Part shown: piece by piece, positions 4,016-46,933 of the stretch
Layout: each line of letters starts with the position of its first letter
Position numbering within the stretch: position 1 is the first letter of the stretch
Assembly: GCA_000091205.1 (NCBI GenBank)
Contig: AP006485.2
DNA from: Cyanidioschyzon merolae
Lineage: Eukaryota
DNA length: 64,000 nt
Direction: 5' to 3' (one strand)
Position numbers and translations under genes: made by a program
The notes under the pieces: generated by a model
What the model was told of the DNA's origin: nothing
What the model saw: the letters and a program-made list of their open reading frames with translations, nothing else
Databases searched by the model: none

Positions 4016-6433
4016 TCAGCAGGCAGCACCTATAACAATCACGCGAGCCTTCTCCAATATTTGCGCTGCACTTGCGTATATGCGGTAGAGCCTTTCCGCG
4101 TACGGCATGATAGACGCAGTACTGTCTGAACCGAGCGCTGAACCGCACATGGTGCGCAGCACATCTACCCGCGCAGGCCATAGCACAGCGTGGGCGACCT
4201 CTTGCGAGGCGTACGTGCCGTAGCAGCTTACGAGTAGACCATCAACCACGAGGCGTCCGGAACGCGTTAGTGGCGCATAGACTCCCTCACGCGTTACATA
4301 AGTGTCGATCGCGACGACAGGGTCCGCTCTATGGGCAGCGGCATCGAGAAGGGCGTCGCCTATGCGTATATGTTCTGCAAAAACTGCCTCGAGGGCGAGG
4401 CTCTCCAGCTCGGGCCTCTGATGTATTGTCTGCTGGTGACGTAAAAGATCTGAAAAAGGGGTCATCCCAAAATCCCGGACTCTCATGCTTGCGTGCATAC
4501 GGTACACTAAATGCTGACTCGTCAAGCGCAACTGCTTCCCTGATAACGTCTTAATAAGTAGGACCTCCGCGGTTGCGCCAGGCTCTTTGTGCAACCATCC
4601 AAGTATAGTATCCTCTAGCAGCTGTCCACTTCTATCGGCCCCAATCACACTCATACCCGAGCGCAACTCACTCATCGGCCGAATACTGCCCAGACGATCG
4701 ATCAGCACAGTGGCATCCTCCGGGAAGCAGATCGTGGTGCCGCCATTGATAGGAATTTTCGTGACATTCGCTGCTGTGGACGGTGTCGCTGAGAGTGATG
4801 GAGTCGCCGACGCAGTCGGTGTCGCTGTAGGCGTTGAGGTTGAGGTTGGTGTCGGCGTCGGTGTCGGCGTCGGTGTCGGCGTCGGTGTCGGCGTCGGTGT
4901 CGGGGAAGGGGTAATCATTGATTCGCTGAGCATGAATATATCATTGAGCTCTCCCTTTCCTTCACTTGTGTTCGAGTATCCGAATCCTCCGAACAGTATC
5001 ATGCCGCTTTCAGTTGTATTCCAGAGAGCAGATCCATACCGAGCACCGGGAACGACGCTGGGACTGAAAGTCCTAAACATTCCGTAATCAGCGGGGGCAT
5101 TAATGACTGCGCTACCATTGATCCAAGCCCACTGGCGCTGCTCCACGTTAAACAACCAAAGATCGTTCAGATCGCCGCTTTCGCTACTACTGTTCCCGTA
5201 CCCTTCACCACCAAAAAGCTGTAGATTTCCTGAAGCGTCAATGAAGCCAACTCCATACTCGCGGGATCCAGGATAGCTTGCAGCATCGGTATTGCCAAAT
5301 ATGATATACGATCCAGGGATCGAGATCGTGGTATTGCCTGCGACAAACGTCCATATGGACGTACTAATGTTATAAAACCAAAGATCATTCAAAAATCCTG
5401 GATAAGATTCCGAACCATTTCCATAACCAAACCCACCAAACATCCACAGATTGGCTTTTGAATCCGTCCATGTAATTGCACCCTGGCGAGCTCCGGGAGC
5501 ATTCGATCTATTGGCAATATCAGGTTCACTGTAATTGCCAGGCTGGTTTACCGATTGTGACCCACCCATATATGCCCACAGTGATAAGGATCTGTTGAAG
5601 CACCAAAGGTCTGAAAACAGGTACGAATAGCAATTCTCACCTCCAAACAACCAGAAGTTTCCATCTGCGCCCAGCCAGAACGCTGCCTTTAAGCGAGCCC
5701 CAGGGTTGTAAGAGGGATCGTAGGAACCCATTGGCCCGTACGTGGGTAAGGCATTGATTGTATCGTTGCCGTCTACCCAGGTCCAGTTTCCACTAACTGT
5801 GTCGTACTGCCACATGTCGTTAAGGCAACCGATATTACCATTTCCATCCAATCCGTAGCCTCCAAACAACCAGAAATGCTCCTCGTCTGCACGCCAGAAT
5901 GCACTGGCCTCCCTTGCGCCCGGAATATTGAGGGCGCTTCCGACTCCAAGTGTACCATAGTTTCCAGGCACATAAATGTCCATAGATCCGCCGATCCATG
6001 CCCACTCGAGCGAGGTAACGTTCAGTCTCCACAGATCGTTAAGATAACCTCCAGAGGAGTTCGCGTATCCAAAGCCACCAAAAAGGTACAAAACGCCGGG
6101 GCTTCCAACCCAGGTCGAGGAGTAGTGGCGACCGCCTGGGACGTTATTCGAGGACGCCACGTTCAGCGTACCATACTTCCCATAATTGTTGACACTAGTT
6201 TCTCCACCTATCCAGGTCCACCGCACGGGATAAGCCGGTGCCCCTGCGCCTACCAAAACCCAAATACGGGCCGAGAACCACAAACAAACGACCAAAACAC
6301 GCAGCCAGAGTACCCGCCTGAGACTACTCCGCCTCAAGCCTCCTTTCATAGGTGAATCTTGTCTTCGTACAGCTCGGGAAGCTCGCCCAAAAGCGTGTCC
6401 AAAGAAGGAAATCGCCGGCTTCAGAACACGCAA
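4016..6433 (-). CDS. Secreted Kelch-repeat / Thr-Pro linker / Hint-domain (Hedgehog-type 'Hog') protein; the true start is probably the Met of 'MKGGLRRSSLRRVLWLRVLVVCLWF' near 6349
   Basis: Single ORF of 805 aa with an N-terminal signal peptide, repeated 'WLFGG / LFGGFGY' kelch or galactose-oxidase-like blades and a (PT)n linker. The C-terminal Hint domain reads 'CFPEDATVLIDRLG...TSQHLVYRM...GVYAPLTRSGRLVVDGLLVSCYG'. Confidence 0.8.
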   Translation of the reverse strand: MRVLKPAISFFGHAFGRASRAVRRQDSPMKGGLRRSSLRRVLWLRVLVVCLWFSARIWVLVGAGAPAYPVRWTWIGGETSVNNYGKYGTLNVASSNNVPGGRHYSSTWVGSPGVLYLFGGFGYANSSGGYLNDLWRLNVTSLEWAWIGGSMDIYVPGNYGTLGVGSALNIPGAREASAFWRADEEHFWLFGGYGLDGNGNIGCLNDMWQYDTVSGNWTWVDGNDTINALPTYGPMGSYDPSYNPGARLKAAFWLGADGNFWLFGGENCYSYLFSDLWCFNRSLSLWAYMGGSQSVNQPGNYSEPDIANRSNAPGARQGAITWTDSKANLWMFGGFGYGNGSESYPGFLNDLWFYNISTSIWTFVAGNTTISIPGSYIIFGNTDAASYPGSREYGVGFIDASGNLQLFGGEGYGNSSSESGDLNDLWLFNVEQRQWAWINGSAVINAPADYGMFRTFSPSVVPGARYGSALWNTTESGMILFGGFGYSNTSEGKGELNDIFMLSESMITPSPTPTPTPTPTPTPTPTPTPTSTSTPTATPTASATPSLSATPSTAANVTKIPINGGTTICFPEDATVLIDRLGSIRPMSELRSGMSVIGADRSGQLLEDTILGWLHKEPGATAEVLLIKTLSGKQLRLTSQHLVYRMHASMRVRDFGMTPFSDLLRHQQTIHQRPELESLALEAVFAEHIRIGDALLDAAAHRADPVVAIDTYVTREGVYAPLTRSGRLVVDGLLVSCYGTYASQEVAHAVLWPARVDVLRTMCGSALGSDSTASIMPYAERLYRIYASAAQILEKARVIVIGAAC

Positions 6434-10700: not shown

Positions 10701-12767
10701 CTATAACTTGCGCAGAGCATCGACCGGCGCAGGCCACAACGCAGCATATGCCACGGCATGCGATGCGGACATCCCGTAGCAGCTCACCAGAATACCGTCG
10801 ACGACAAGGCGCCCTGAGCGAGTCAATGGCGCATAGAGACCATTGTGCGTAACGAAAGTCTCGATTGCCACCAAGGGGTCTGGCAGGTGCGCCGCAACAT
10901 CCACTAGAGTGTCGCCAATGCGTATATCTTCCGCGAGATCTACCTCAATGGCAGAGGTACCCAGCTCAAGCCTCTGACGTATTTGCCTCTGCTGCTGTGG
11001 CTGATGCTTCCCTGAAAGAGAAGAAGCTGTGGTCGTAACACTGTAAAAGTCTCTAGAGTGTCCAAGCATCCGATATACGAGATGCTGCCTCGTCAAACAC
11101 AGCTGCTTTCCGGAGAGCGTCTTGATCACCAGAATCTCCGCAGTAGCGCCGGGCTCGTTATGCAACCATCCTAGTACACTATCATCGACCAGTTGCCCAC
11201 GTCCATTGACCCCGATCGCGGCCATACCTGATCGAAGCTCGCTTATCTGCAGACTGTTGCCCAGACCATCGATCAGTACCGAGGCATCCGCGGGGAAGCA
11301 GACCGCAGAGCCTTCGCCTACAGCGGTCTGCGTCACATTTGTCGTTGCCGCCGGTGCTGCAGTAACGGAGCGTGTCGGTGATGCCGTCGGAGTCGGTGTT
11401 GCGGTCGGCGTAGGCGTCGGTGTTGCGATGTATAATGTGAAGAGGTCGTTATAGATACCTGAGCTTCCTTGGCCTCCGAACAGGACCGGGTCGTTTTGAT
11501 CGGTATCCCAAAGAACTGCATCAGCTCGCGGAGGTGGAAGCGTTGTATTGCTTGTCTTGTTAAGCTCGCCGTAACTATAGGCTCCATCTGTTGTATTGTC
11601 ACCGTCTACCCACGCCCATTCGAGACTCGTAATATTGAACGTCCACAGGTCGTTGCAGAGACCAGGTGAATAACCACCGAAAAGATACAGGGTGTTTGTC
11701 GAGTCTACGAATCTAGAGGAACCAGCTCTGTACCCGGGACTGTTATACGATGAGAGCACTCTTTTGTCGCCGAAAACTGACTCATTCGAGCCAACGCTAC
11801 CATCTCCAGATATCCAGGCCCATGCTCTAGAGCTGATATTGAAGAGCCACAAATCATTCAGAAAGCTGCGAATTCCGATACTCAGTCCTAGACCACCAAA
11901 GAGCCAAAAGTTGCCAGCAAGGTCTTGCCATGATGCGGCTCCGGAACGTCCAGCGGGATAGTTGCTCGGTGATGTCTGCCGAAACGCACCATAACTTCCA
12001 GAGGCAATCTGCTATTCAGTCCCTTCAATCCATCCCCATTCGTTGGTCACTATGCTGCACTACCACTAGTCACCGTAATATGCACCATTAGGACTAGATC
12101 CACCAAAGAGATAAAACTGGCCAGCCAAACCAACCCAGGTGGCGGGTAAGAAACGAGTGCCGGGCGTATTGTTCGAAGACGACTTCCCAAGAGTGCCATA
12201 TGTAGGGGAAATAATGGTCTTGTCGAAGCCCTGCACCCATGTCCACTCGCTCGACGATACATTATACATCCACATATCACAATACCCCGAGTTCAAATTC
12301 CGGCCTCCATATAACCAAAGGTTTCCGTAGCTGTCGCTCCATGCAGCGAGTTGCCTCCTCGAGGGCGGAGCGTTGCTCTCTTTGGGAACTCCGAGGAAAC
12401 CTTATACCCCTGCAAGGTTGGGGGATACAGAGCCTCCAACCCAGGTCCAAGTCTACGCGCTCAGATTGTAGTACCAGAGATTATCAACGACGCCACTCGG
12501 GACGCGACCACCAACCAACCAGAGCACTACGTCAACGCCGGTCCAGGAAGCCGCACCGTGCTGCGCCGGAGGCACGTTGCTGCTGTTTGGTACACCCTGA
12601 ACATCGTAGCTAACCGCGCTACCGGTAGAGTTACTAATGCCGATCCAGGTCCATAAAAAAGTATTCACGGCCGAAAAATCCCCTTGAACTGTGTGCATAT
12701 AAGACACAACCAAGATTACAACTAGGTGTCTCACTGCAGAAAAATCTCGTATTCGGATTTGAAACAT
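10701..12767 (-). pseudogene. Second Kelch-(TP)n-Hint 'Hog' paralog, interrupted by in-frame stops and frame breaks
   Basis: The signal-peptide start is 'MFQIRIRDFSAVRHLVVILVV' (12767) and kelch blades 'FYLFGGSSPNGAYYGD' and 'FWLFGGLGLS' follow. Two adjacent in-frame TAGs ('ggtgacTAGtggTAGtgc', about 12077-12085) and one more interrupt the frame, and 12296-12453 is frame-discontinuous. The intact 3' part 10701-11852 carries the TP linker and Hint domain 'CFPADASVLIDGLG...GLYAPLTRSGRLVVDGILVSCYG'. Confidence 0.6.
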
Positions 12768-13334: not shown

Positions 13335-15206
13335 TTACACTGTGGAGAAGGCGCTCGCAGACGTCGACACAGAAGCTGAAACTGAAGCACTCGCGGATAC
13401 ACTCACAGAAGCTGTCGCAGAGGCCGTCGCAGAGACTGTTGCAGACACCGTCGCAGAGGGTGTCGCTGTCACAGCCACGGGACTCGGAGTCGGTGTTGGA
13501 CTAATGACCACACATTGGTTGTTGATGCACTCCTCGTCAGCGCGGCAGCAACGAACCTTGTTCACAAGGTTATCCGAAGGGATCAGGTACGTCCCGCACT
13601 GCTTCGTAGGGTCCTTGCACACACAGAACGACGGCAGCAGCACCTGTTGTTGCTGCTGTTGTTGCAATTGCTGCTGCTGCTGCTGGTTGTTGTTGTTGCT
13701 GAACGGGTTGTACGTGCAGTTCTGCGTCTCGGCGTTGCAGCACTCCGGGCCACACGGAATATAGCTCGAGTTCGATACGTTGCCGGTCGTGCCGCTCAGC
13801 GAGTTCGACACATACCCGTAGGTCTGGCACACGTACTCGGTCATCGGCTGGAAGCACTCGTTGCTGAGCCCCAGGCAGCAACCAGCCTCCAGACACTGCT
13901 GCGGCGAGTAGCTCGTGCGCTGCGTCCCGTGCTGCTCCCCGTACAGAAGCGTGTTCAGCAGACGCACAAACTGGTTATTGTTGATGTTATTGTTCAGCTG
14001 CTGGTTCTGATTCACCGCGTTCGTGCACGGCTGGCGCTCAAACTCGCCCACCGCGCACGTCTTCACGGGCTGGAAGCAGTACGGGTTCGACTCAAAGTCG
14101 CTCTGCTGCTTGCCGTTCTGCACCCACTGGTTCTGCGCCTGCGAGTCGTAGCAGCAGCCCTGGGCATAGCACGTAAACTGGTTGATGCCCGCGTTGCCGC
14201 ACGGCTGGCGCTGCGCTCCCGGTGACGGGCAGAGGGGAACCGGTGCCTGCACCTCCTGCAGCGCTACAGAGGCCTGCGGTGCATGGTTGATGTCGTAGTA
14301 GCACCAGGGTGCCAGGATGCCGTTCGCTGTGGGCTGCCAGCAGCATCCCGGTATCGCAGTGCACTCGTCGGGGTAGATATAGCTCCAGCCGCAGGGGACG
14401 CGCTGTGTCACTGGAACAGCGCTGCAGGCCGCTGAGACGCTCTTCAGGGTGCACGCGTTCGTCTGGGCGTTGAAGCAGCATCCGACTTGCTCGCAAGCGT
14501 CCTGGTTTGTGTACTGGCCCGGAGAACCGCAGATTTCACTCGTGCAAACTGGTGTTGGCGTTGCACTCGGTGTCGGGGTTATAATAGCAAGTGTCGCACC
14601 AGAGGGTAGAATTGTAGAAAGCAGGTCGGTGAAAGTTTGAAGCACAATTTGCAGTTCACTGGCGAGGGATGTGTCTCCTGAGATCTTAATCACATAGGTC
14701 ACAACACTGCCGCCCGAAGTGCGCACCAATGCTCGTTCCAGACGAGGATTGCTCTTGTCTAATGTGGTGGCGAGGCGCCTTGATGTACCCGAACCGAAGA
14801 CCGTGTCGCAGTTATCAGTCACGCTAACATTCACTTCCAGGCCTATGAAGCGAGCCTCGAGATCGTTCTGCAAATCCGTCGCCACGGCCAAACAAAGAGA
14901 AAGATTCTGAACGGATATCGCAATCGAGGTGGAAATCGTCGTCGGCACGATTGTTGGTGACGTTGTTGTAGTCGGTGTCATCGTAGGCGTCGGCGTCGGT
15001 GTCATCGTCGGCGTCGGTGTCATCGTCGCTGACACCGATGGAGCCACCGAACTTGTTGGTGACAATGTTGCAGTCGCTGTCATTGTCGATTGTGCTTCGG
15101 CCCCTAGCGTGGCACACCCAACAGCAAGCGACAGAGCTGCGACCAAGACGAACAACTGTTTACACAGTTCGCCGAAGTTGCGATATTTTCCTGCTCCTGG
15201 TCTCAT
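13335..15206 (-). CDS. Secreted multi-trefoil (P-domain) glycoprotein with TP/ST-rich, poly-Q and poly-N regions
   Basis: There is a signal peptide 'MRPGAGKYRNFGELCKQLFVLVAALSLAVGC' (ATG at 15206). Trefoil signatures include 'RVPCGWSYIYPDECTAIPGCCWQPTANGILAPWCYY' and 'RQPCGNAGINQFTCYAQGCCYDS...NPYCFQ', with two more degenerate units and (TP)n/(ST)n linkers. Confidence 0.7.
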   Translation of the reverse strand: MRPGAGKYRNFGELCKQLFVLVAALSLAVGCATLGAEAQSTMTATATLSPTSSVAPSVSATMTPTPTMTPTPTPTMTPTTTTSPTIVPTTISTSIAISVQNLSLCLAVATDLQNDLEARFIGLEVNVSVTDNCDTVFGSGTSRRLATTLDKSNPRLERALVRTSGGSVVTYVIKISGDTSLASELQIVLQTFTDLLSTILPSGATLAIITPTPSATPTPVCTSEICGSPGQYTNQDACEQVGCCFNAQTNACTLKSVSAACSAVPVTQRVPCGWSYIYPDECTAIPGCCWQPTANGILAPWCYYDINHAPQASVALQEVQAPVPLCPSPGAQRQPCGNAGINQFTCYAQGCCYDSQAQNQWVQNGKQQSDFESNPYCFQPVKTCAVGEFERQPCTNAVNQNQQLNNNINNNQFVRLLNTLLYGEQHGTQRTSYSPQQCLEAGCCLGLSNECFQPMTEYVCQTYGYVSNSLSGTTGNVSNSSYIPCGPECCNAETQNCTYNPFSNNNNQQQQQQLQQQQQQQVLLPSFCVCKDPTKQCGTYLIPSDNLVNKVRCCRADEECINNQCVVISPTPTPSPVAVTATPSATVSATVSATASATASVSVSASASVSASVSTSASAFSTV

Positions 15207-15877
15207 GCTTCTAGAGCTAAGAACTTCTTGTCGACACTAGGTTTTTGTGAATACTTATTTCTTACAGCTGCACCGGTTGCTGAGATGTTTTGTCGCACCG
15301 CGAGTTTCGCTATCTCTCTGGCTACGAAACAGCCCAGTCGGCTACCGAGCGCTGTGTGAAGAACACCAACGCAGCGGCGATAGCGCCTGTGAAAAAATTT
15401 AAAACGCGCAACATGCCTCGAAGCCGCGGCAATCGATGATCACGGCGAAGGAGAAACGGTTCGAGACGATCCCTGCAGGCGCGGTTTCGATTTCGCGTTT
15501 CGCGCCAAAAGCGATTGCGCAGACGTGTCCCCGAGCGAGCTCTGGTTTGCTTCATTATCGGCGTGGGGCACGTGTCCTTCATCGATCGGCGTAGTGTCCC
15601 GCGAGGCGCACGCATCGCGGTCAGTGAGCGCACCTCGGAGATCGAGCAGTCAACTGACGCGACGCGCATGGCTCCGTTGAAGGGAAACGCGGTTGGGATC
15701 AATAGCATGTTGTTCTACCGGAAAAAGTTGGATTTCCGTTCAGGTCGTAGCCAAGTACAGTCTTTCAGTTCGTTTCTGTTTGAAACTTCAAACAAGTCTA
15801 GTCAAGTGTTTTTCGTGGTTTATAGTAGACGCGTTCGTACCGCGTTCGTTCGCAAAAAAAACAAAAAAAGGAAAGCT

Positions 15878-37130: not shown

Positions 37131-38660
37131 CTACGCTTCCCCAATCGCTGGCTGCACGTAGACAAACTCCTCGACATAAGGATGCGGCAAACTTTTGTCT
37201 TGCACATCGGGACAAATTTCCGAGCTCGACGGTACACAGTCTCGCGGGCAGGTCCAGATCGCAATCGTTCCGAAATCCAAAACAGCACGCGGGTCTTCGG
37301 AACGCACTCCACGTGTCGCCGGCGTCTGAGTAGGGCACTGTTCCGCAGGTTCCAGTTCGTTTTCCGACTCCCGGCAGAGATAATAAATTAACTGCGACAT
37401 GACCTGCACTTCGAAAACTCGTGGCATGCCGCAGAGGCCACAAGGAGGCACCTGTGCGGCTTCAAGCCTCGACTTGGATCCGAACCACAGGATCTGCTGA
37501 TTCGAAATCGTAGCTAGCTTTTGCGGGTTGTTCACAGCGATCATCGCAAGACGATCATGCAAGGGCAGGTATCGAATGACTTGGTTTCGATGGCTCCCAA
37601 GCGCCTGCTCGAATGCAAGTGCATCCGACAAATCAGAACAGCGTAAGTTTTGCTCTGTCTCGATTGTTTCTATGAATGATATCCATTCTGCTGCCGAGCA
37701 TGCATGCTCTTTTGTAGGTGCAGCATCCTCTGCGTCTACGTTCACCACACGGAGTTCCGATTCTTCAACTTGGTCGTCGATGACGCCGCTGTCGTGCTCG
37801 GAGTCGCTGTCCCAGTCGACGAGAATTTCGACCGCCGGGAAGCCGAGAGAGGGCTCCTCAGAGATGGTTGCGTCCGCCCCAGATTTGTCGTATGCTGCGT
37901 GTGCTCGCCGCGAACTTGTTCCGCCTACACGCGTCTGCTCTGCTGTTTGCTGCGGAGCCACTGCAGCGGCCGCTTGAAGCGCATCAAAACTGGCGGTGTC
38001 AGCGGCAGCACCCCGGTGTGGCGACGGAGGCGGATCAAGCCCCGACAACCCCGCCGACAAGTTCGCAGGGTACCGACGCAACGCTTCCAGGTCTTCGACT
38101 TGATCTGGGTACCAGCTATTGTGCTGTGGCAGCTGCACCCTGTATACTCGAGCAGCGCCTGAATTGTCGGCGGATCGACTAGCGCACCACGCACAGATGA
38201 ACAAGTACAACACGCGATGAAACGCCGCCGCATTGTGCCCCCGGGGCGCGTACACTTGCAAAAGGAAACGAAGTTGTCGTTTGCACGAGCCGCATCGTAA
38301 TCTTTTCGTGGCTAGGCCAGCGGGGAGCGGCACCAACCAGGCCGGTGTGCCGCCCGCTCGCGACTCGAACGGTGTCCACTGTTTCGACCTGAACAGCTCC
38401 CGTTCATACACACCGTCCTCGACGCAACCCAATATAATAGAAGATTTTGAGACTTCAACGTCCATGAAGGGTTCCAAGCAGTGCATAAAGATCTCAACGC
38501 TCACGTCTAGCGCTTCTGGTGTTTTGCATTCCCCAGAGGCTTTCGCATCGGGAGTGCCAAGTGCACCCGCCAGCACGTGTTGTGCCAGCACCGGGTCGCA
38601 CCGACAGGTCCGCAGGTACATGACGATTCTCGTGCGCAACCTCTGGTGCACGACCTGCAC
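37131..38660 (-). CDS. PDCD2 / PDCD2-like (TSR4-type) protein with a long low-complexity insertion; the likely start is the Met of 'MHCLEPFMDVEV' near 38486
   Basis: N-terminal 'GGTPAWLVPLPAGLATKRLRCGSCKRQLRFLLQVYAP' matches the PDCD2 N-region. The C-terminal PDCD2_C part reads 'CGLCGMPRVFEVQVMSQLIYYL...LDFGTIAIWTCPRDC'. Confidence 0.75.
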   Translation of the reverse strand: MQVVHQRLRTRIVMYLRTCRCDPVLAQHVLAGALGTPDAKASGECKTPEALDVSVEIFMHCLEPFMDVEVSKSSIILGCVEDGVYERELFRSKQWTPFESRAGGTPAWLVPLPAGLATKRLRCGSCKRQLRFLLQVYAPRGHNAAAFHRVLYLFICAWCASRSADNSGAARVYRVQLPQHNSWYPDQVEDLEALRRYPANLSAGLSGLDPPPSPHRGAAADTASFDALQAAAAVAPQQTAEQTRVGGTSSRRAHAAYDKSGADATISEEPSLGFPAVEILVDWDSDSEHDSGVIDDQVEESELRVVNVDAEDAAPTKEHACSAAEWISFIETIETEQNLRCSDLSDALAFEQALGSHRNQVIRYLPLHDRLAMIAVNNPQKLATISNQQILWFGSKSRLEAAQVPPCGLCGMPRVFEVQVMSQLIYYLCRESENELEPAEQCPTQTPATRGVRSEDPRAVLDFGTIAIWTCPRDCVPSSSEICPDVQDKSLPHPYVEEFVYVQPAIGEA

Positions 38661-38669
38661 GCTTCAGGG

Positions 38670-41018
38670 ATGACTGCCTCTGAAGACGAACGAGCTCCGC
38701 TTGATTGGAGTCTGGACTATGTAAGGTACTTAGAAGCGAAGGAACGGATCGATGATCGAGCCATTCACTGCGAGCTCTGGGAGCGGTTTACGGGGTTCCT
38801 GCACAGCCAGCTGAGCCAAGGCCAAGCCGCAGCGACCCGACTGGAGCCGCTGCGCATCATTGACGTGGGTGCGGGTATCGGCTCGCTACTTTTTCGCTTA
38901 CTGGCAAGTTGGGAGCACGCGGAAGCGCTTGAACAAGTACGAACGTACCGTCGAGGGGTGGAATACTGGGCAGTCGACCTCAAGTCGCAGCTCCTGCGTG
39001 CACTGCTCCAGCGTCTGCAGAGCGTCGCAGCCAGCAATGAGAATCCCTGGCAATTGGAGCGCTATCATTTAGAAACGAACGTGGTGGACCACTCAAATGA
39101 CGACGAGTTGCACCAGTGCCTATCTGGTTTTGACCTCCACCGTGCCGCTGATCGCGATCAGCGACCGGCCTGCTCGCAAGCGATCCGAGCAGCTGCCACA
39201 GGTCAGGCGACTCGCGCAGAAAGCCCAGCGCCTGTAATGGACATGAAGACGCCCCTGGAACCAGGTCCAAAAACTCAACAAACAGTTGTTGTCGTTGGTG
39301 GTGGTGGTGGTGGTGGTGCTCAGAAAGCCACAGCTACTGCGGCCTCACTGGAGCATACGCGCCAGCATCGAGCCGGTGAAACTACTGGCGACGACACTAG
39401 GCACGTCGCCGAGCCACAAATCGGCCCTGGTGCGGCTTCAGTAGAAACAAGACGTTTTGAAGATAGCGACATGCCCGCCGGAACTCCAACAACGGATCCG
39501 CAAACGCATCATGCGTCGTGCCTGGGGTCAGCGAAGCTGGTACTGAAGGCATCATCGACTGGTTTCTACCTCAACGTACACTGCTATCAAGGCGATGCAG
39601 AAACTTTCTGTACGCAGCATCCCGGCACTGCAGAGGTGCTGTGGGCGTCATCTTTTTTCGATCTGCTGCTGAACGAGGCCGCCGCTGGGAGCGCATCGAA
39701 CCTGGCGTATGCGCGTTTGCGCGCCGCAATGCCCCGATTGCTGGCGACACTCAAACCCTATGGCGTATTTTATTTCCCTTTACATTACGACGGCATGACT
39801 TACTGGCTACCTAATTTTGATCCATCAAGCGCAGCGTATGAAGCAGAGCAGCAGGTGCTGGCAGCCTTTCATCGCTCGCTGAACCCCGATTGCACCGGCT
39901 TTTGTGGCCAAGCGCTCCTGGATGTTATACAAGACGCAGCGATACCTGCGCCTGCAGCATGTGATTGTACCTTTGGATACGTCACAGCGGGAGAAGTTTC
40001 TGCAGACGAACCGGCATTATCGAGTGCTGGCGTATCTCCCCAGCGTGTGCCACGAAGCACACAGCAAACCTTGGCGTCCGACTCGCTCTGCGCAATTCGT
40101 TCGGGGGCGTACGTACAGACGGCTGCTGGACAGCGCCTGGCCGGACCGCACGCGGCGATGCGACCCATGGTTACGGGCTTGGCACCCAGCACATGGTGTG
40201 TCCAGCCGTTTGCTGGGCTCGGCGTCTATTTGCCATCCACTGATGCCTATTTTCTCGAATGTATACTTAAGCTCATCGGTGGAGCTGCCTGGTCAAGCGC
40301 TTGCACCGCGTCAGAGAGGGCACGCATTGAGCGCTGGTACCAACAGCGACGCGAGCAGTTGCAGCAACGGCTGCTGACCTATGTTGCCCACAATATCGAT
40401 CTGCTAGGAATCGTCATTCCAGCGAGAATCCAGACTCGAGCGGTTGCCCGTGGCCCGGTCTTGCACTCGCCGACGGTTTGCGATTCGAGTATGGCGCCCG
40501 TACTGATGGGGATGACCGCGCGGGCCCGAGTGCCCGCCTTTGCCAAAAGTATAGAGCCAGTTGGCGTTTTCTCGTACGGAACGCTGCAATCGCCCCGCGT
40601 ACTACAAACCATTTTGGGACGCATTCCCCGATCGGTTGCCGCTGTGCTCAACGGGTATCGCGTCCACGGGGTGCGAGATGAATCATACCCAGCAGTGGCG
40701 AAATCAGCACCGGAAAATGCGCCGCACGAGGCCGTACCTGGCGTATTGCTTCTCGAGCTTACTGCAGCCGATCACGCGCTGCTGGACGCCTACGAAGGCC
40801 CACAGTACCAAAAACTGGTGGAAGAGGTCCAGATTCTGCCCCTGGGCATGAGACTCAGAGCTTTCGTGTACGTTTGGAAATCTTCCACTGATAATCTCGT
40901 TGCCTTACCGAACCAACACTGGGATTTGGATGCCTGGACGCGAACACATGAACAGAGTTTTTGCCAGGAATGCTCAGAATGGATCCGTACATTCAAGTCG
41001 GCAAATGCGGCTGAGTGA
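38670..41018 (+). CDS. Two-domain protein: N-terminal Rossmann/SAM-methyltransferase-like motif and C-terminal AIG2/gamma-glutamyl(amine) cyclotransferase-like domain, with long low-complexity inserts
   Basis: First ATG at 38670 ('MTASEDERAPLDW'). 'LRIIDVGAGIGSLLFRLL' is a methyltransferase motif-I-like stretch. The C-terminal 'GVFSYGTLQSPRVLQTILGRIPRSVAAVLNGYRVHGVRDESYPAV...VPGVLLLELTAADHALLDAYEGPQYQKLVEEV' fits the GGACT/AIG2 'YGTL...YP...V.G.L..L...LD..EG' pattern. Confidence 0.55.
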   Translation: MTASEDERAPLDWSLDYVRYLEAKERIDDRAIHCELWERFTGFLHSQLSQGQAAATRLEPLRIIDVGAGIGSLLFRLLASWEHAEALEQVRTYRRGVEYWAVDLKSQLLRALLQRLQSVAASNENPWQLERYHLETNVVDHSNDDELHQCLSGFDLHRAADRDQRPACSQAIRAAATGQATRAESPAPVMDMKTPLEPGPKTQQTVVVVGGGGGGGAQKATATAASLEHTRQHRAGETTGDDTRHVAEPQIGPGAASVETRRFEDSDMPAGTPTTDPQTHHASCLGSAKLVLKASSTGFYLNVHCYQGDAETFCTQHPGTAEVLWASSFFDLLLNEAAAGSASNLAYARLRAAMPRLLATLKPYGVFYFPLHYDGMTYWLPNFDPSSAAYEAEQQVLAAFHRSLNPDCTGFCGQALLDVIQDAAIPAPAACDCTFGYVTAGEVSADEPALSSAGVSPQRVPRSTQQTLASDSLCAIRSGAYVQTAAGQRLAGPHAAMRPMVTGLAPSTWCVQPFAGLGVYLPSTDAYFLECILKLIGGAAWSSACTASERARIERWYQQRREQLQQRLLTYVAHNIDLLGIVIPARIQTRAVARGPVLHSPTVCDSSMAPVLMGMTARARVPAFAKSIEPVGVFSYGTLQSPRVLQTILGRIPRSVAAVLNGYRVHGVRDESYPAVAKSAPENAPHEAVPGVLLLELTAADHALLDAYEGPQYQKLVEEVQILPLGMRLRAFVYVWKSSTDNLVALPNQHWDLDAWTRTHEQSFCQECSEWIRTFKSANAAE

Positions 41019-41388: not shown

Positions 41389-41420
<32 letters not shown>
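41388..41420. repeat. (GTC)n microsatellite, about 11 units
   Basis: Seen directly: 'gtcgtcgtcgtc...'. Confidence 0.9.
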
Positions 41421-41780
41421 TGCATTCTTGGTGCACCAAGCAGCTGCCAGCATGCATGCTCCTGCCATTCGACAACCAGGCGCGTCTTGCTGTTCGATTG
41501 CGCAGTGTTCTGGGACACGTCCGCCTTTACAAACGGTACTGCGCAAGAGGCCCGCATAGCGCGACAGCACTGCGCGCCGCTTCGTTGCTCCATCTGGTGA
41601 GCCACTGGACCAGGCACCGTTTCGATAGGGCGCGTCCAGCTAAACGGCACAACCTGCGTCCCGGCGAATACAGAGCAACCAAGACATTGGCAATCGGGCG
41701 GCATACCCAGGCCCGGCGCATGCCGCAAGACCCTGATCCCCGGCCGTGTGTTCTGGCGCGCTGAACGTACTGGACACGGG

Positions 41781-41803
41781 CAGCAGCAGCAGCAGCAGCA
41801 GCA
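41781..41803. repeat. (CAG)n microsatellite
   Basis: Seen directly. Confidence 0.9.
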
Positions 41804-41831: not shown

Positions 41832-42656
41832 TCAGTGACGATGCGTCAGGACGACACCGAGAACGATCGCTAGGATGATCAAGATCACTAAAACGATGAT
41901 ACAGCTCGCCGCGGCCACATTCTTTTGACACATGCGTTTCTTCAAGGTTCCCGACTGCCGCTGAAACGTACCCGCCGTATTCCGGAGCGCATCGGCCTGC
42001 TCCACGAGGTCATCCAAGCGTTCGCCACGCTCCAAGACGTCTTCGATGTTGCGCTGCATCACAGCGTGAATGTCACGAACCTCGCCCTGGAGCTGGGCGA
42101 TCTTGTCCTGCCTCGTTGTGTACGTCTGGGTCAGCGCTTTGAGCGTTGGGCGAAACGCAGCGTCCAGGGCGTCCGGTTTCGTCATTCTCCGCAGGTCAGC
42201 GGGCGCATATCGCGATTCAAACTGTTCACGTACTTGCTGTAGAAAATCAAAAGCCAGTTGTCTGGGGTACCCACGCAAACACACTGCCAAGTAGATGAGG
42301 TCCTGATGAACCTGAACGTGATACCCGACGTTTCCACTGTCGTACGAGGTGCGCACATCCGTCCCAGTCGGCGTTTTATTCAAAATTCGATCCGCAATTT
42401 CCTCGAACTTTGGGCGCTCTCCCGCACCGAGACCCTCCTGGATCGCTCGACGGTCCAGGTAGGTTACCAGACGCACGGAGCTATTCCCGACAGTGACGAA
42501 GAGGATGCGTCGCGGTGCGGGGGCTGGTCGCTCCGTCTGTCCAGCACTGTCGTCGCTGCTGCGTGCCTTGCTCAAGTTTGCGTCATCACTATTCGAAACG
42601 GAGAGAGCGTTCGTCCCTTTTGAAAGGGAGGTGTTTGCCGCAGTAGTGCGCTCCAT
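41832..42656 (-). CDS. Longin-domain R-SNARE, VAMP7-like (longin plus synaptobrevin SNARE motif plus C-terminal TM)
   Basis: ATG at 42654-42656 ('MERTT...'). The longin region reads 'ILFVTVGNSSVRLVTYL...YLAVCLRGYPRQLAFDFLQQVREQFESRY'. The SNARE motif is 'LQGEVRDIHAVMQRNIEDVLERGERLDDLVEQADALRNTAGTFQRQSGTLKKRMCQKN' and the TM is 'AAASCIIVLVILIILAIVLGVVL'. Confidence 0.8.
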   Translation of the reverse strand: MERTTAANTSLSKGTNALSVSNSDDANLSKARSSDDSAGQTERPAPAPRRILFVTVGNSSVRLVTYLDRRAIQEGLGAGERPKFEEIADRILNKTPTGTDVRTSYDSGNVGYHVQVHQDLIYLAVCLRGYPRQLAFDFLQQVREQFESRYAPADLRRMTKPDALDAAFRPTLKALTQTYTTRQDKIAQLQGEVRDIHAVMQRNIEDVLERGERLDDLVEQADALRNTAGTFQRQSGTLKKRMCQKNVAAASCIIVLVILIILAIVLGVVLTHRH

Positions 42657-42865
42657 GAACTGCACACCCGTAATCCACGTTCAGGGAGGAAAGCGGACAG
42701 GCGCGTTCTGCTGTCGTTGGCATCGATCGTTTCCCCGTCGACTAGGACACGTCAGAGGTGTCGTCTCGAGTGACGTTCCCTTCGCCGCGGTCTTCCGTTA
42801 TTCGGGCACTTCTACCGAGGACGTCTGTGTTTATTGAAGGTTATTATTCATAAAACGAAAACTTC

Positions 42866-45800
42866 ATGAGAGGTAATGGCTTGGCTTGGTCTAGGTTGCT
42901 CTGGGGGCTCGTTTGGCTTGGAGTCGTGGTGTTGGCGTTCGCGAACCGAGCCACGGGGCAGCGTTATCCCCAGAGCACGTGGATCCTTGAAGAGCGAAAT
43001 CTACTTACACTGCGTCAGACCACACCACTGGAGCCAGTGCTGGGAAACAGCACTGCTGTACCCAGTGCGCGTGCATCGGTGACGGCGAGCGCGTCGCTCA
43101 ACCCGAACGCAACGCTGCTCTCGGTGCGACCCAGCGTTTCGGAGACGGGAACGCCATCGCCGTCAACAACCACAGCGACTCCAACGAGTACGGTGCTGCC
43201 GTCACCGCTGCCGTCGCCTAGCACAACGGCGACGAGCTCGCCGAGCCCGACGCCCATGGCAAGCAGCGGGCCCGCTGCAACCCCGAGTTTCCCGAGCCCG
43301 TCACCAGATACCGGTGTGGTGAACCTGCTGGCGAACTCGGGCAACGTCAGTCTATCATTGTATGAGAACAGAACGTTTCAGGAGGCGTTCGCACAAACGC
43401 TCGTGTCCAACCTGCAGAGCCAGTGCGTGCGGTGTCAGAACGCTTCAGCTATTCAATTAACCATGTTCAGGTACACATCTGGTTACTTTCGCCTGAATCA
43501 CTCCAACAGCTCCCGAAACAACACCTCGGATACCAGTGGCAATGGAGGCAACGGGCCGGTAACGGCACCGGTGCTGACCAACCGTCGACGCCGCATGCTT
43601 CAAACCTGGCAATGGCTCACTGGGAAGCGCTCGACCTCGCCTCCCGTGCAGAACATCGCTGGGTCTGTCGTTGGACGTGCCAGCAGCACCGCTGGATCCG
43701 GCACAAGCGACGGAACCGATGTTGCAGTGGCGTTGCAGGTGGCGGCGGACCCAGCGGATATACCCACGGTTGAGAATCGAACCTCGTCGGGGCTCCTGAC
43801 GGCGGTGCTCGCTACCAGTTCGAATATCACCAATGCCTCGATGCAGGTCGTCGCTCGCACCGCAGCGTTCGGTGAGGGTGCCGAGGACCCGTTCAAGGGC
43901 TCCGGGCTCGGTAGCGTCCACAGCGGGGCGGTGTCCACAGGTGCCATTGTGGGTGCAGTGATCGGCTCTGTGGCTGGCGTCCTGCTGGCGATGATCTTCG
44001 CCTTCATGCTTTGGAGACGGTGCCGACGCCAAGCGGCGAAGCAAGAGGCACTCCGCACCAAGGAGGCTGCCGAGGCAGCTGCCCGCAAGTATCGCGAGCA
44101 ACAGTCCGCTATGGCTGCTGCTGCCGCCGCTGCACAGCGCCTCTCGAGCGGCTCTGGTCGACCGATTCCACCAACATTACCGCAAGACCAGTCCGCTGGT
44201 GGAGACGCCGCATCACGTGCTCGCTATGCTGGCGTTGTGACGCTGCGGGAGCTCGCTCGAACGCGTATTCTCCAAGGCATGATGCGCATCGTGCAAGCTG
44301 CCGAGGCGGAGTCGAACGCTGCGTCTGCCGCACTCATTCGTAGCGATAACCAACGCAAACTGGTATTTTTGATCGTTGCAGATCGACGTGCGCTAGCGGT
44401 ATTGTCGGCAGCGTGTCGCTTGACAGACCTCATCCAAGAGGGTGCCTTCGTGGTGGAGTCGCTCGAGAGTGAGCGTGAGCCATTGCCGCGCATGTCGGCG
44501 GTGTATTTTGTAGCGCCGGAGCTAGCTTCATTCGATCGCCTTGTTGCCGACTTCCCGGATACGCAAACCGCAGCACATCCATCAGACGGGGCCGGTCAGC
44601 GCCTCGCTGACGCTGGTCCAGGGACGAGCGTCAGCCGCACGGCGCCAAGGAGCGCTGGGTCCGGCCCCGAGAGCGGCGCTGCGGGGCGTCTGGCGGCGAG
44701 TCCCGCGAACGCGCGTACACCACGGGCTCGCTGGGGTTCGGGCGCTGCACCCGGGCCACCCGGCGCTACCACGACAGCTTCGGGGCCACGCTATCGAGCG
44801 GCACATGTGTTCACCACGGCTCGCGTGCCAGATGCGCTGTTGGACCTTCTGCGGCAGTCGTCGTGTCTGGTCCAGCGGCTCTTGACGTTTACGGAGCTCA
44901 ACCTGGACTTTATGGCTATCGAGGAGCGCATCTTCTCCCTGGACTATCCGAATGCACTGGAGATGCTATTCGCCCCGGGCAGTGCCGCAGGTCACGATGA
45001 TGATCATGATGGTGCTGCGCTTCCAGGCTGGGCATCTGCCTGGGATGCACGCCCAGCAGCGTTGCAGCCGCCCCCAGGCGCCTGTTCGGATATGGTCCAG
45101 CGTATTGCCCAGAACCTGCTGACGCTCTGCCACCTTCTGGGCGAGGTGCCAACGATTCGCTACCAACGAAGCGAAAGCGGCGTTGCGCAGAGCATCGCTG
45201 AGGCGCTCCTCGACGCCATCCGAGACTACGAGGCCAATGTACCCGGCGGGATGCGTGGTGCGCAGCTGGAAGCGGCTGCCGTCGAGCAGAACGCCAGCAC
45301 CGCAGCAGCTCCCAGCGAGGACAAGTCCTCTGCTGGTACCAGCACCAATACCATGCTGCTGATTCTGGACCGTTCTGTGGATATGGTGGCTCCCTTTCTC
45401 CACGAATATACGTACCAGGCGATGTGCAACGATCTGCTAGCAGCGGATGCGCTGGATAGCGGCACCACGCGCTATACCTACGTGGTGCGTGAAGGCGACT
45501 CCACCGCCAGCACCACCCGGGAAGCCTTTCTGGACGAGTACGCTGACCAGACCTGGGCCCGTCTTCGTCATCTGCATATCGCGGACGCTATCAGCGAGAT
45601 CAGCGAGGAGCTGCAGGGAACTACAGTGCGTTCATTGGGCGCCGCGCTGCAGGGCGCCTCCGCTGCTCGAAACGCGCCCCCGGAGAGCACTGCCATGCCC
45701 TATGAACAGATGCAGAAACTGAGCAAATACGCGGTGCACATGGATATCCTAGATTGTCTGATGCATCGTTTCAATGATCGGTATCTTCAGCGTACCTCGC

Positions 45801-46933
45801 TTTGTGAACAGGATCTCGCGTGTGGTCTAGTGGATTGTCACGGGAACCTGCTCTCGTCGACAGAGGCAGCACAGCGGATTTCGTTGATCCTCCAGGATGC
45901 GCATGTGCCGCTGGAGGACAAGGTGCGCTTGTTGGCAATCGTGCTGGTCACCATGGATATGAGTGCACGTGATGTCGACGATCTCCTGGAGACCATGGAG
46001 GATGTGGGTCTAGGGCGAGAACTCGTGTCGGCGTTGCTACGTGCACGCCTGGGTGTGCATCTCGCCAAGGAGCCTGGTGAGTGCCAAGCGCTTGCGGAGC
46101 GTGCGCTGCGCTACTTTCGCGCAAGTCGTGGCGAATCCTACGATCTATCTCGCTATGTTCCGTTCCTGCGGGAAATCCTTGAAGCTATTGCGCGTGATCG
46201 TCTCTCGCGGAGTCGGTTTCCGATCCTCTTCAGTGCAGAGCGGGAGTCGGCAGGTCGCCAGCCCCCAGACGACGCGTTGACGCGAGGCCGCTCACGCTCG
46301 CTCTCGCGGGAGCGAGACGTTGCCGGTCGGGTACCTACGCGGAACCGCGCAGCCTCGGTACGCAGACGACGCTCATCATCGGTCGTGCGTCGTCGCTCTG
46401 ACTCTGCCGATGACCTGGAGCGCGGTTCAGGGCGAGAGCTCTCCAGTGCCAGCGAAGACGAAGCCGCTACCCTGAATGGAACCGAGCGGATTAGTGATAG
46501 CAAACGACCTCGTCGACGGGTGGTCGTCTTTATTGCTGGTGGCATGTGCGCGTCTGAGATGCGAGTTAGCTACGAGGTATCGGCGGAGTTGCCGCTGAAT
46601 GTGTACCTTGGAGCGACGCATGTGTTGACGCCTACTCGGATGCTTGAGGCACTGCGAGGCCTGAATCGCACGCTGTACGCTGGCGAGATGCAACGAGAAC
46701 GTCGACCAGTGAGTGCTTCAGAGCAGCGTCGTGGTGCACGTTCGACACCTGCGGTATGGCCACCACCGGGCGAGCCGAGTACCAGCGGCAACCTGCGACT
46801 GGGTACCGGGCTTGCCTCTGAAGCTGCCACCGCGTTTGATAGTGCCGCAACTCCTTATCCCTCGAATGACGGCTTTGCACCGCGCAGGCGTCGTTCAAGT
46901 AGTCTTTCGCGCTTTTTCAGCCGTCGGTCATAG
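42866..46933 (+). CDS. Sec1/Munc18 (SM) family protein as a single 1355-aa ORF, with an in-frame N-terminal signal peptide, S/T/P-rich mucin-like region and TM helix preceding the SM domain
   Basis: ATG at 42866 with signal peptide 'MRGNGLAWSRLLWGLVWLGVVVLAFA'. The TM and stop-transfer is 'GAIVGAVIGSVAGVLLAMIFAFMLWRRCRRQ'. SM motifs are 'RKLVFLIVADRRALAVLSAACRLTDLIQEGAFVVESLESEREPLPRMSAVYFVAPELASFDRLVADF', 'LLILDRSVDMVAPFLHEYTYQAMCNDLL' and 'RVVVFIAGGMCASEMRVSYEVSAELPLNVYLGATHVLTPTRMLEAL' (closest to the Munc18/Sec1 C-terminus). Confidence 0.75.
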   Translation: MRGNGLAWSRLLWGLVWLGVVVLAFANRATGQRYPQSTWILEERNLLTLRQTTPLEPVLGNSTAVPSARASVTASASLNPNATLLSVRPSVSETGTPSPSTTTATPTSTVLPSPLPSPSTTATSSPSPTPMASSGPAATPSFPSPSPDTGVVNLLANSGNVSLSLYENRTFQEAFAQTLVSNLQSQCVRCQNASAIQLTMFRYTSGYFRLNHSNSSRNNTSDTSGNGGNGPVTAPVLTNRRRRMLQTWQWLTGKRSTSPPVQNIAGSVVGRASSTAGSGTSDGTDVAVALQVAADPADIPTVENRTSSGLLTAVLATSSNITNASMQVVARTAAFGEGAEDPFKGSGLGSVHSGAVSTGAIVGAVIGSVAGVLLAMIFAFMLWRRCRRQAAKQEALRTKEAAEAAARKYREQQSAMAAAAAAAQRLSSGSGRPIPPTLPQDQSAGGDAASRARYAGVVTLRELARTRILQGMMRIVQAAEAESNAASAALIRSDNQRKLVFLIVADRRALAVLSAACRLTDLIQEGAFVVESLESEREPLPRMSAVYFVAPELASFDRLVADFPDTQTAAHPSDGAGQRLADAGPGTSVSRTAPRSAGSGPESGAAGRLAASPANARTPRARWGSGAAPGPPGATTTASGPRYRAAHVFTTARVPDALLDLLRQSSCLVQRLLTFTELNLDFMAIEERIFSLDYPNALEMLFAPGSAAGHDDDHDGAALPGWASAWDARPAALQPPPGACSDMVQRIAQNLLTLCHLLGEVPTIRYQRSESGVAQSIAEALLDAIRDYEANVPGGMRGAQLEAAAVEQNASTAAAPSEDKSSAGTSTNTMLLILDRSVDMVAPFLHEYTYQAMCNDLLAADALDSGTTRYTYVVREGDSTASTTREAFLDEYADQTWARLRHLHIADAISEISEELQGTTVRSLGAALQGASAARNAPPESTAMPYEQMQKLSKYAVHMDILDCLMHRFNDRYLQRTSLCEQDLACGLVDCHGNLLSSTEAAQRISLILQDAHVPLEDKVRLLAIVLVTMDMSARDVDDLLETMEDVGLGRELVSALLRARLGVHLAKEPGECQALAERALRYFRASRGESYDLSRYVPFLREILEAIARDRLSRSRFPILFSAERESAGRQPPDDALTRGRSRSLSRERDVAGRVPTRNRAASVRRRRSSSVVRRRSDSADDLERGSGRELSSASEDEAATLNGTERISDSKRPRRRVVVFIAGGMCASEMRVSYEVSAELPLNVYLGATHVLTPTRMLEALRGLNRTLYAGEMQRERRPVSASEQRRGARSTPAVWPPPGEPSTSGNLRLGTGLASEAATAFDSAATPYPSNDGFAPRRRRSSSLSRFFSRRS

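Follow-up and report, generated by a model that had tools for sequence, protein, structure and literature searches.

The first 64 kb of chromosome 3 of Cyanidioschyzon merolae 10D (NC_010129.1, bases 1-64000; this whole stretch is called the window below) contain two membrane-fusion genes, CMC018C and CMC019C, that lie head to head. We read them as an ancient divergent gene pair of cyanidiophycean red algae that is co-induced in the walled diploid and that encodes an exocytic module with a membrane-anchored Sec1/Munc18 (SM) protein; we give this reading a probability of roughly 65%, the shared promoter and joint action in one fusion step being its more tentative parts. The initial annotation of this DNA had proposed that a VAMP7-like R-SNARE gene and a Sec1/Munc18 gene are arranged head to head, and this is borne out by Pfam domains, by a gap of 209 bp between the start codons (42657-42865), and by matching annotation: the coordinates derived from open reading frames (ORFs) are identical to those annotated for NC_010129.1 (general feature format file, GFF, in the supplement of PMC13353863). 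The pair and its spacer are laid out as follows.

41832-42656, minus strand: CMC018C, coding sequence of a longin/VAMP7-type R-SNARE, 274 aa plus stop, diploid-phase-specific (ORF, Pfam and GFF)
42657-42865: spacer between the start codons, 209 bp, putative shared (bidirectional) promoter and 5' leader region
42866-46933, plus strand: CMC019C, 1355 aa, predicted type I membrane protein with a cytosolic Sec1/Munc18 domain, diploid-biased (uninterrupted ORF and GFF)

The start codon of CMC018C is the ATG at 42654-42656, and the upstream GTG at 42665, where the ORF list starts the gene, is unneeded. GC content in this region is about 55-60% and introns are nearly absent.

Divergent orientation by itself is not unusual. 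For a SNARE gene placed divergently upstream of an SM gene, post hoc arithmetic of our own gives about 0.02 cases expected per genome, given 16 SNARE and 10 SM genes among about 4,800-4,900 genes (PMC13353863). The spacing of 209 bp is the second-shortest among roughly nine divergent large-ORF pairs in the window, most of the others being 1-4 kb apart, as read from the ORF list. A tighter head-to-head pair is formed by CMC016C (PDCD2-like, minus strand) and CMC017C (AIG2/GGACT-like, plus strand) at 38660-38670 of the window, where the annotated start codons are 9 bp apart; both genes are mildly haploid-biased in the table of PMC13353863.

The identity of the minus-strand product follows from two Pfam matches, each exceeding its family cut-off: Longin (PF13774, aa 93-171, 1.7e-13) and Synaptobrevin (PF00957, aa 186-270, 3.4e-26).

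42144-42380, minus strand: Longin domain, PF13774 match, aa 93-171; in the orthologue alignment, conserved sequence begins near aa 50
41847-42101, minus strand: SNARE motif and C-terminal membrane anchor, aa 186-270 (PF00957 and alignment to VAMP7, 4b93)

The closest solved structure is VAMP7 (4b93, 8e-21), followed by Sec22b (5e-14) and Ykt6 (1.5e-8), and the longin region of CMC018C aligns with the VAMP7 longin domain in 4b93. The stretch LERGERL, invariant in four orthologues, aligns with AQRGERL of VAMP7 in that structure, which we take to hold the zero-layer Arg. At the C-terminus there is a hydrophobic tail, AAASCIIVLVILIILAIVLGVVL, an anchor that is invariant in orthologues, and Phobius reports one transmembrane (TM) segment (PMC13353863). 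The N-terminus carries a low-complexity extension of about 50 aa that varies between genera in the orthologue alignment. Judged by these sequence features, CMC018C is a VAMP7-type longin R-SNARE; it is labelled VAMP71-type in PMC13353863.

The plus-strand gene encodes a larger and more composite protein. Its predicted parts, in order, are:

42866-42958, plus strand: predicted signal peptide, aa 1-31, hydrophobic core at about aa 5-29 (hydropathy; SignalP in PMC13353863; hydrophobic N-termini aligned in the orthologues P0002, P0004 and P0005)
43043-43315, plus strand: mucin-like Ser/Thr/Pro-rich stretch, aa 60-150, 63% S+T+P (composition; equivalent low-complexity stretch in orthologues)
43313-43870, plus strand: membrane-adjacent ectodomain, aa 150-335, a ferredoxin-like beta-alpha-beta / beta-alpha-beta sandwich, sequon-rich
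43937-44014, plus strand: single TM helix, aa ~358-383 (hydropathy maximum 2.53, helix in model)
44018-44146, plus strand: cytosolic juxtamembrane helix, aa 385-427, followed by a flexible linker of ~30 aa (AlphaFold2 helix with predicted local distance difference test, pLDDT, of 72-86; strongly conserved in alignment)
44237-46669, plus strand: Sec1/Munc18 domain, aa ~458-1268, with five large disordered inserts (Pfam, phmmer, Foldseek, model)

The Sec1 domain is essentially full length: CMC019C matches Pfam Sec1 (PF00995) over profile positions 3-574 of 575 (4e-82). Among solved structures, Munc18-1/2 and squid Sec1 come closest (~2e-55), with Sly1 (5e-11) and Vps45 (1e-6) far behind, and phmmer aligns CMC019C to Munc18-1 in five collinear pieces that span chain residues 30-588. 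In the AlphaFold2 model the Sec1 core has a pLDDT of 70-90, and Foldseek gives Munc18-1/2 as top matches (1.7e-31, probability 1.00), with Vps45, Sly1 and Vps33 weaker (3e-21, 3.6e-20 and 3.7e-15). Sequence and model thus identify CMC019C as an SM protein of the Sec1/Munc18 subfamily with a predicted complete Sec1 fold (domains 1, 2, 3a and 3b). A well-conserved stretch, MPYEQMQKLSKYAVHMDILDCLM, aligns with the segment of Munc18-1 that is presumably the domain 3a helix contacting synaptobrevin in the Munc18-1/syntaxin/synaptobrevin template complex. In a previously published tree, a C. merolae homologue falls into the Sec1 clade with strong support, the gene identifier being absent from the text (PMC1810245), and 10 "SM" genes per genome have been counted (PMC13353863), two of which we recognised in this analysis.

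Arg/Ser-rich stretches of CMC019C lie at 46300-46470 (aa ~1140-1200) and at 46880-46930, the C-terminus; they include RSRSLSRER..., SVRRRRSSSVVRRRSDS and the C-terminal RRRRSSSLSRFFSRR. They are nearly invariant across genera despite predicted disorder, and have the look of conserved motifs, either for phosphorylation or basic ones for membrane binding.

The initial annotation was right to call a Sec1/Munc18 gene on the plus strand, but the Sec1 homology is confined to the part from about aa 458 (about base 44237) onward; the leading 1.37 kb encodes something else, and the layout of signal peptide and TM helix had been missed. Indeed, aa 1-457 are non-Sec1 sequence. The TM segment is the only strongly hydrophobic internal segment and is directly followed by the basic RRCRRQ; the region around it keeps invariant G/W/R positions across orthologues, including the Galdieria-like P0007 and P0008. 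N-glycosylation sequons are concentrated on one side of it, with 12 in the 326-aa ectodomain part versus 3 in the 972 cytosolic residues. The published tables likewise flag SP(Sec/SPI) and one TM segment for CMC019C (Data Set S8), and they give a signal peptide and one TM segment for G. partita g1423 and two TM segments for g1424 (PMC13353863). Because of the cleaved signal peptide and the positive-inside TM helix, both predicted, the Munc18 domain would face the cytosol, where it could function, and we predict that CMC019C is a Sec1/Munc18 protein with a type I membrane anchor.

This layout of signal peptide and TM helix is predicted in four genera. Signal peptide, ectodomain, TM helix and linker are 33-50% identical to those of other genera, and the Galdieria-like proteins likewise have a TM helix and linker ahead of the Sec1 domain. 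No stop codon separates the parts, and the frame is uninterrupted, in C. merolae, in two strains each of Cyanidiococcus and Cyanidium, and in the Galdieria-like genes; by our own estimate, the chance of so long an open upstream stretch at this GC content is ~1e-6 (1355-codon ORF). The orthologue alignment shows no conserved internal Met anywhere from the TM helix to the Sec1 domain; the juxtamembrane linker that joins the two ranks with the best-conserved parts of the protein.

The ectodomain itself appears to be private to the lineage. Its sandwich is interrupted by a disordered insert (aa ~211-283), it matches no Pfam family, and a phmmer search against 1.84 billion representatives returned only Cyanidiales orthologues, weaker matches being restricted to the TM helix and linker; we found this ectodomain only in Cyanidiophyceae. 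We considered self-cleavage of the SEA type and rejected it: GSVVG (aa 265-269) resembles the SEA cleavage motif and is unconserved in orthologues. In the literature searched we found no description of an SM protein bearing a signal peptide or TM helix, and could not find the membrane-anchored Munc18, a predicted variant of the SM family, described before.

To compare the expression of the two genes we used published RNA sequencing of diploid versus haploid cells (PMC13353863, Plant Cell 2026, Data Set S8), which provides one contrast. Transcripts per million (TPM) and log fold changes (logFC) are:

CMC018C: diploid MS1 78, 81, 74; haploid MS1 Ha3 0.7, 0.7, 0; haploid 10D 0, 0.4, 0; logFC 7.6 / 9.0
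CMC019C: diploid MS1 79, 81, 80; haploid MS1 Ha3 2.8, 4.4, 4.1; haploid 10D 17, 15, 14; logFC 4.7 / 2.6

Both genes thus reach about 80 TPM in diploids and are low in haploids, and the flanking CMC016C, CMC017C, CMC020C and CMC021C are not diploid-biased (Data Set S8). The R-SNARE orthogroup is a diploid differentially expressed gene (DEG) in all three Cyanidiales (PMC13353863). In the sister genus, 159 of 4,884 genes (about 3%) are diploid DEGs (PMC13353863); at that rate, a given pair of adjacent genes would consist of two diploid DEGs by chance roughly one time in a thousand. The co-regulation that had been suggested for the pair is therefore supported, the expression being correlated and the arrangement being conserved in relatives, as described below. 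The text of PMC13353863 mentions neither the arrangement of the pair nor a bidirectional promoter, nor CMC018C or CMC019C, and we found no mention of the two genes in the literature searched.

A divergent pair with Longin/Synaptobrevin and Sec1 domains is kept in Cyanidiococcus yangmingshanensis, with a gap of 212 bp, and in Cyanidium caldarium, with a gap of 328 bp, as well as on two environmental contigs that are 99% identical to C. merolae. The Cyanidiococcus and Cyanidium loci also have most of the surrounding genes in common with C. merolae. Within the Cyanidiales such conservation carries little weight, since collinearity extends to 86% of genes across Cyanidioschyzon, Cyanidiococcus and Cyanidium (PMC9812998). 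Cyanidiales and Galdieriales have little gene order in common (PMC9812998), and in Galdieria partita a VAMP7 gene, g1422, adjoins two sec1 genes, g1423 and g1424 (Data Set S10, PMC13353863). Gene numbers in Galdieria follow chromosome order: the Galdieria-like contigs L003-L006 carry Sec1, a 965-aa protein and a CCCH zinc-finger gene, as do g1424-g1426. The Logan contigs with Galdieria-like Sec1 (P0007, P0008) all stop 200-430 bp upstream of the gene.

A metagenome scan returned C. merolae-like contigs and unrelated eukaryotes only, a word-indexed search with the R-SNARE returned only two close relatives, and in five unrelated eukaryotic Sec1 loci with 7-10 kb of flank there was no R-SNARE nearby. 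Galdieria has two VAMP7 genes, of which one keeps PDCD2 and BCCP neighbours and the other keeps tandemly duplicated Sec1 neighbours; this suggests that an ancestral BCCP-PDCD2-VAMP7-Sec1 block may have been duplicated and split.

The spacer holds the one conserved non-coding sequence of the region. In a 28-kb syntenic comparison with Cyanidiococcus, every match was coding except the following block (match starting at 42705 or 42722):

42705-42753: conserved non-coding block, ...ATCGATCGTTTCnnCGTCGACnnGGACACGTC; blastn identity to Cyanidiococcus 78% over 55 bp and 87.5% over 32 bp (from 42722)

The only 7-mer common to the spacers of all three genera, on either strand, is ACACGTC, with an ACGT core (k-mer intersection). 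These data support the block as a candidate conserved regulatory element, and we infer a shared promoter for CMC018C and CMC019C. Scans of the spacer matched no Rfam family and no bacterial-type promoter or terminator, the latter as expected for a eukaryote, and the spacers of the three genera contain no MEF2 site, CArG box, TALE (TGACAG) site or TATA box. In the literature searched we found no note of the pair as bidirectional, and the pairing of an SM gene with an R-SNARE gene is likewise undescribed there.

We also looked for motifs common to the spacer and other phase-specific promoters. GGACACGT has six copies in the window (6933, 15523, 15570, 41046, 41513 and 42745), all intergenic and all adjoining phase-specific genes: CMC002C (haploid Hint/Kelch), CMC005C (diploid trefoil) and the CMC018C/CMC019C pair. 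CATCGATCG occurs in the window only at 15580 and 42721, in the trefoil promoter and in the spacer of the pair, each time within about 25 bp of GGACACGT. The placement of the two motifs shows no specificity in the Cyanidiococcus or Cyanidium loci, and their possible role as a phase-control element is only a lead. Another candidate, GACACGTC, was dropped, with 3 copies in the window against 2.9 expected. The 8-mers common to the spacer and the promoter of the diploid-specific trefoil gene were equalled by an unrelated region at 30.5 kb and are likewise a lead only.

How might the two proteins work together? Sequence in the spacer, including the ACGT-core block at 42705-42753, would drive both genes in diploids, and the locus would be silenced in haploids. 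The SM protein would enter the secretory pathway through its signal peptide and become a type I glycoprotein, with the mucin-like, ferredoxin-like ectodomain outside the cell or in the lumen and the Munc18 domain tethered to the cytosolic face by the TM helix and flexible linker. Anchored in this way, it could chaperone a plasma-membrane syntaxin, probably the diploid-only SYP1 paralogue CMK304C, and template SNARE assembly with the co-expressed R-SNARE. CMC018C, CMC019C and CMK304C would then be a diploid-specific exocytic module that delivers wall or matrix material.

The published expression data are consistent with such a set. CMK304C is diploid-only (about 320 TPM versus 0 in haploids), and another SYP1 paralogue, CMI249C, is haploid-only (about 2 TPM in diploids versus about 160 in haploids); the authors suggest that diploid-biased SM proteins may act with SYP1 in building the diploid cell wall (PMC13353863). 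From the diploid-only Qa SNARE, R-SNARE and SM protein we infer a coherent exocytic set, CMC018C, CMC019C and CMK304C acting in the same fusion step. C. merolae is without most exocyst subunits (PMC1810245), and one may speculate that anchoring the SM protein in the target membrane makes up for this and takes the place of recruitment by tethers. More tentative, and in our judgement somewhat short of an even chance, is the full version of this model: that Cyanidiophyceae anchor their exocytic Sec1/Munc18 as a type I glycoprotein, the first natural integral-membrane SM protein, encode it back to back with an R-SNARE, and use both with the diploid-only SYP1 as a phase-specific wall-building fusion module. 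Outside the window, the haploid-specific SYP1 gene adjoins the gene of the Golgi SNARE GOS1 in C. merolae (CMI249C/CMI250C) and in Cyanidium (g321/g322) in the published tables, a second adjacency of trafficking genes.

Several points weigh against our reading of the locus, and we take them with the alternatives to which they belong. The land-plant VAMP71 class is vacuolar or endosomal, not exocytic, and the canonical partner of an SM protein is a Qa syntaxin, not an R-SNARE. Given that the SNARE of the pair is classed as VAMP71 and that SM proteins mainly bind Qa SNAREs, the two proteins could be co-expressed and yet serve separate fusion steps, the R-SNARE at endosomes or vacuoles with an SM protein of the Vps33/Vps45 type and the anchored Munc18 with SYP1 and CMH176C. 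The latter is a second VAMP7 paralogue, constitutive at 250-330 TPM (PMC13353863). We think this unlikely, although it is the alternative that survives best. Among the matches listed for these genomes (PMC13353863), there are two VAMP7-type genes and no brevin-type exocytic R-SNARE; the helix of domain 3a that binds R-SNAREs is conserved; and the diploid-only SYP1, R-SNARE and SM protein form a coherent set.

A different explanation, which we hold to be unlikely as well, is that the arrangement is inherited synteny of no selective meaning and that the two genes have separate promoters, co-expressed through the diploid programme or through one small Polycomb domain marked by trimethylation of histone H3 lysine 27 (H3K27me3). 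The 86% collinearity among Cyanidiales makes conservation within the order expected, and part of the left flank of the pair is also kept in Galdieria: in g1185-g1188 (Data Set S10, PMC13353863), the VAMP7 gene g1185 has for neighbours PDCD2 and BCCP, which in C. merolae flank the pair on the left. Part of the Galdieria adjacency may thus be plain inherited synteny, the whole block being old. Expression in Galdieria also differs between the two genes, with g1422 (VAMP7) constitutive (log2FC 0.5) and the sec1 gene g1423 diploid-biased (3.3) (PMC13353863). In C. merolae itself, co-regulation is imperfect: the haploid levels are unequal, with the SNARE gene at 0 TPM and the SM gene at 3-17 TPM, and in haploid 10D CMC019C retains 14-17 TPM while CMC018C is off. 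The candidate spacer motifs occur at chance frequency in the window and are non-specific in the Cyanidiococcus and Cyanidium loci. Finally, silencing in haploids goes along with H3K27me3 in these algae, 116 of the 126 genes so marked in haploids being diploid genes (PMC13353863), and the co-regulation could be a chromatin-domain effect on a silenced domain of two genes, as an alternative or a complement to a shared promoter.

Against inherited synteny with separate promoters, however, stand the spacer and the expression levels. Two promoters with their leaders could hardly avoid overlap in 209 bp, the only conserved non-coding block of the region sits in that spacer, and the diploid TPM values of the two genes are nearly identical. 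A silenced domain would have to comprise exactly these two genes, the immediate neighbours not being phase-specific, and a SNARE gene beside an SM gene is rare by chance, as estimated above.

The architecture of CMC019C can be read from its ORF, and its membrane topology and localisation are predictions. A Met at aa 416 (base 44111) in C. merolae and Cyanidiococcus, 40 residues ahead of the Sec1 homology, could in principle be the start of a soluble SM protein of the kind otherwise described. Still, it is most improbable that CMC019C is a mis-joined model of a mucin-like type I protein gene and a soluble Sec1 gene: this Met is a Lys in Cyanidium, with no other conserved Met there, none of the sequences compared has a stop between the parts, the upstream gene would be without a stop codon or terminator of its own, the linker is among the best-conserved parts, and both NCBI and PMC13353863 (in four species) annotate one gene with a signal peptide and TM helix.

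The rest of the neighbourhood can be described briefly.

38670-41018, plus strand: CMC017C (published GFF, supplement of PMC13353863)
47927-49753, minus strand: CMC020C (published GFF, supplement of PMC13353863)

Between CMC017C and CMC018C, 3' of the R-SNARE gene, lie two perfect trinucleotide microsatellites, (GTC)x10.7 at 41389-41420 and (GCA)x8 at 41780-41803, and an Rfam scan of 40.5-47.5 kb found no structured RNA families. Toward the subtelomeric chromosome end there are further phase-specific families, with Kelch+Hint ("hedgehog-like") ORFs and a trefoil-domain ORF (4016-6433, 10701-11852 and 13335-15206, all on the minus strand). CMC002C is haploid-specific and CMC005C diploid-specific, the Kelch/Hint and trefoil families being strongly phase-specific (PMC13353863). 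The 383-aa Kelch+Hint ORF at 10701-11852 (minus strand) looks like a shorter paralogue or remnant.

SM proteins are generally regarded as soluble chaperones whose recruitment to membranes depends on syntaxins and tethers. In a genetically tractable organism with minimal trafficking, a natural, conserved, anchored Munc18 could show what recruitment adds to SM function, and also whether anchoring substitutes for tethering complexes. The conserved 209-bp unit offers a system for studying diploid-specific gene switching in the newly discovered sexual cycle of Cyanidiophyceae, and in C. merolae engineering the spacer could be used directly as a bidirectional promoter specific to diploids. Should the pair, with its anchored SM protein, act together with the diploid-only SYP1, they would be a simple case of a stage-specific exocytic route made by swapping one SNARE/SM set.

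Compared with Munc18-1/STXBP1, Sec1p and KEULE, CMC019C has the same full Sec1 domain, collinear with residues 30-588 of Munc18-1 and with a conserved domain 3a helix, but it adds an extension of ~457 aa, five long disordered inserts and an Arg/Ser-rich tail, and its expression is specific to one phase of the life cycle. To our knowledge, described SM proteins are all soluble or peripheral cytosolic proteins of about 600-700 aa without a signal peptide or TM helix; given its predicted signal peptide and TM helix, CMC019C is a variant of the SM subfamily, not a typical member. Its ectodomain may be comparable to SEA domains and MAD12 of protocadherin-15, as a predicted beta-alpha-beta-beta-alpha-beta sandwich directly before the TM helix and after a Ser/Thr/Pro-rich stretch, but has no sequence similarity to any Pfam family or to any non-Cyanidiales protein. 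CMC018C, like VAMP7 and plant VAMP71, has a longin domain, an R-SNARE motif and a C-terminal anchor; it differs in its variable N-terminal extension of ~50 aa and its strictly diploid-specific expression.

Functional partners that share a bidirectional promoter are well known from the divergent histone H2A-H2B genes and from yeast GAL1-GAL10. As in those pairs, CMC018C and CMC019C stand head to head across a spacer of much less than 1 kb, in a conserved arrangement and with matched expression; here, in contrast, an SM protein is paired with an R-SNARE, and the bidirectional promoter is putative. As a co-regulated divergent pair, CMC018C/CMC019C is a new example of a familiar kind, and the anchored Munc18 is the larger surprise.

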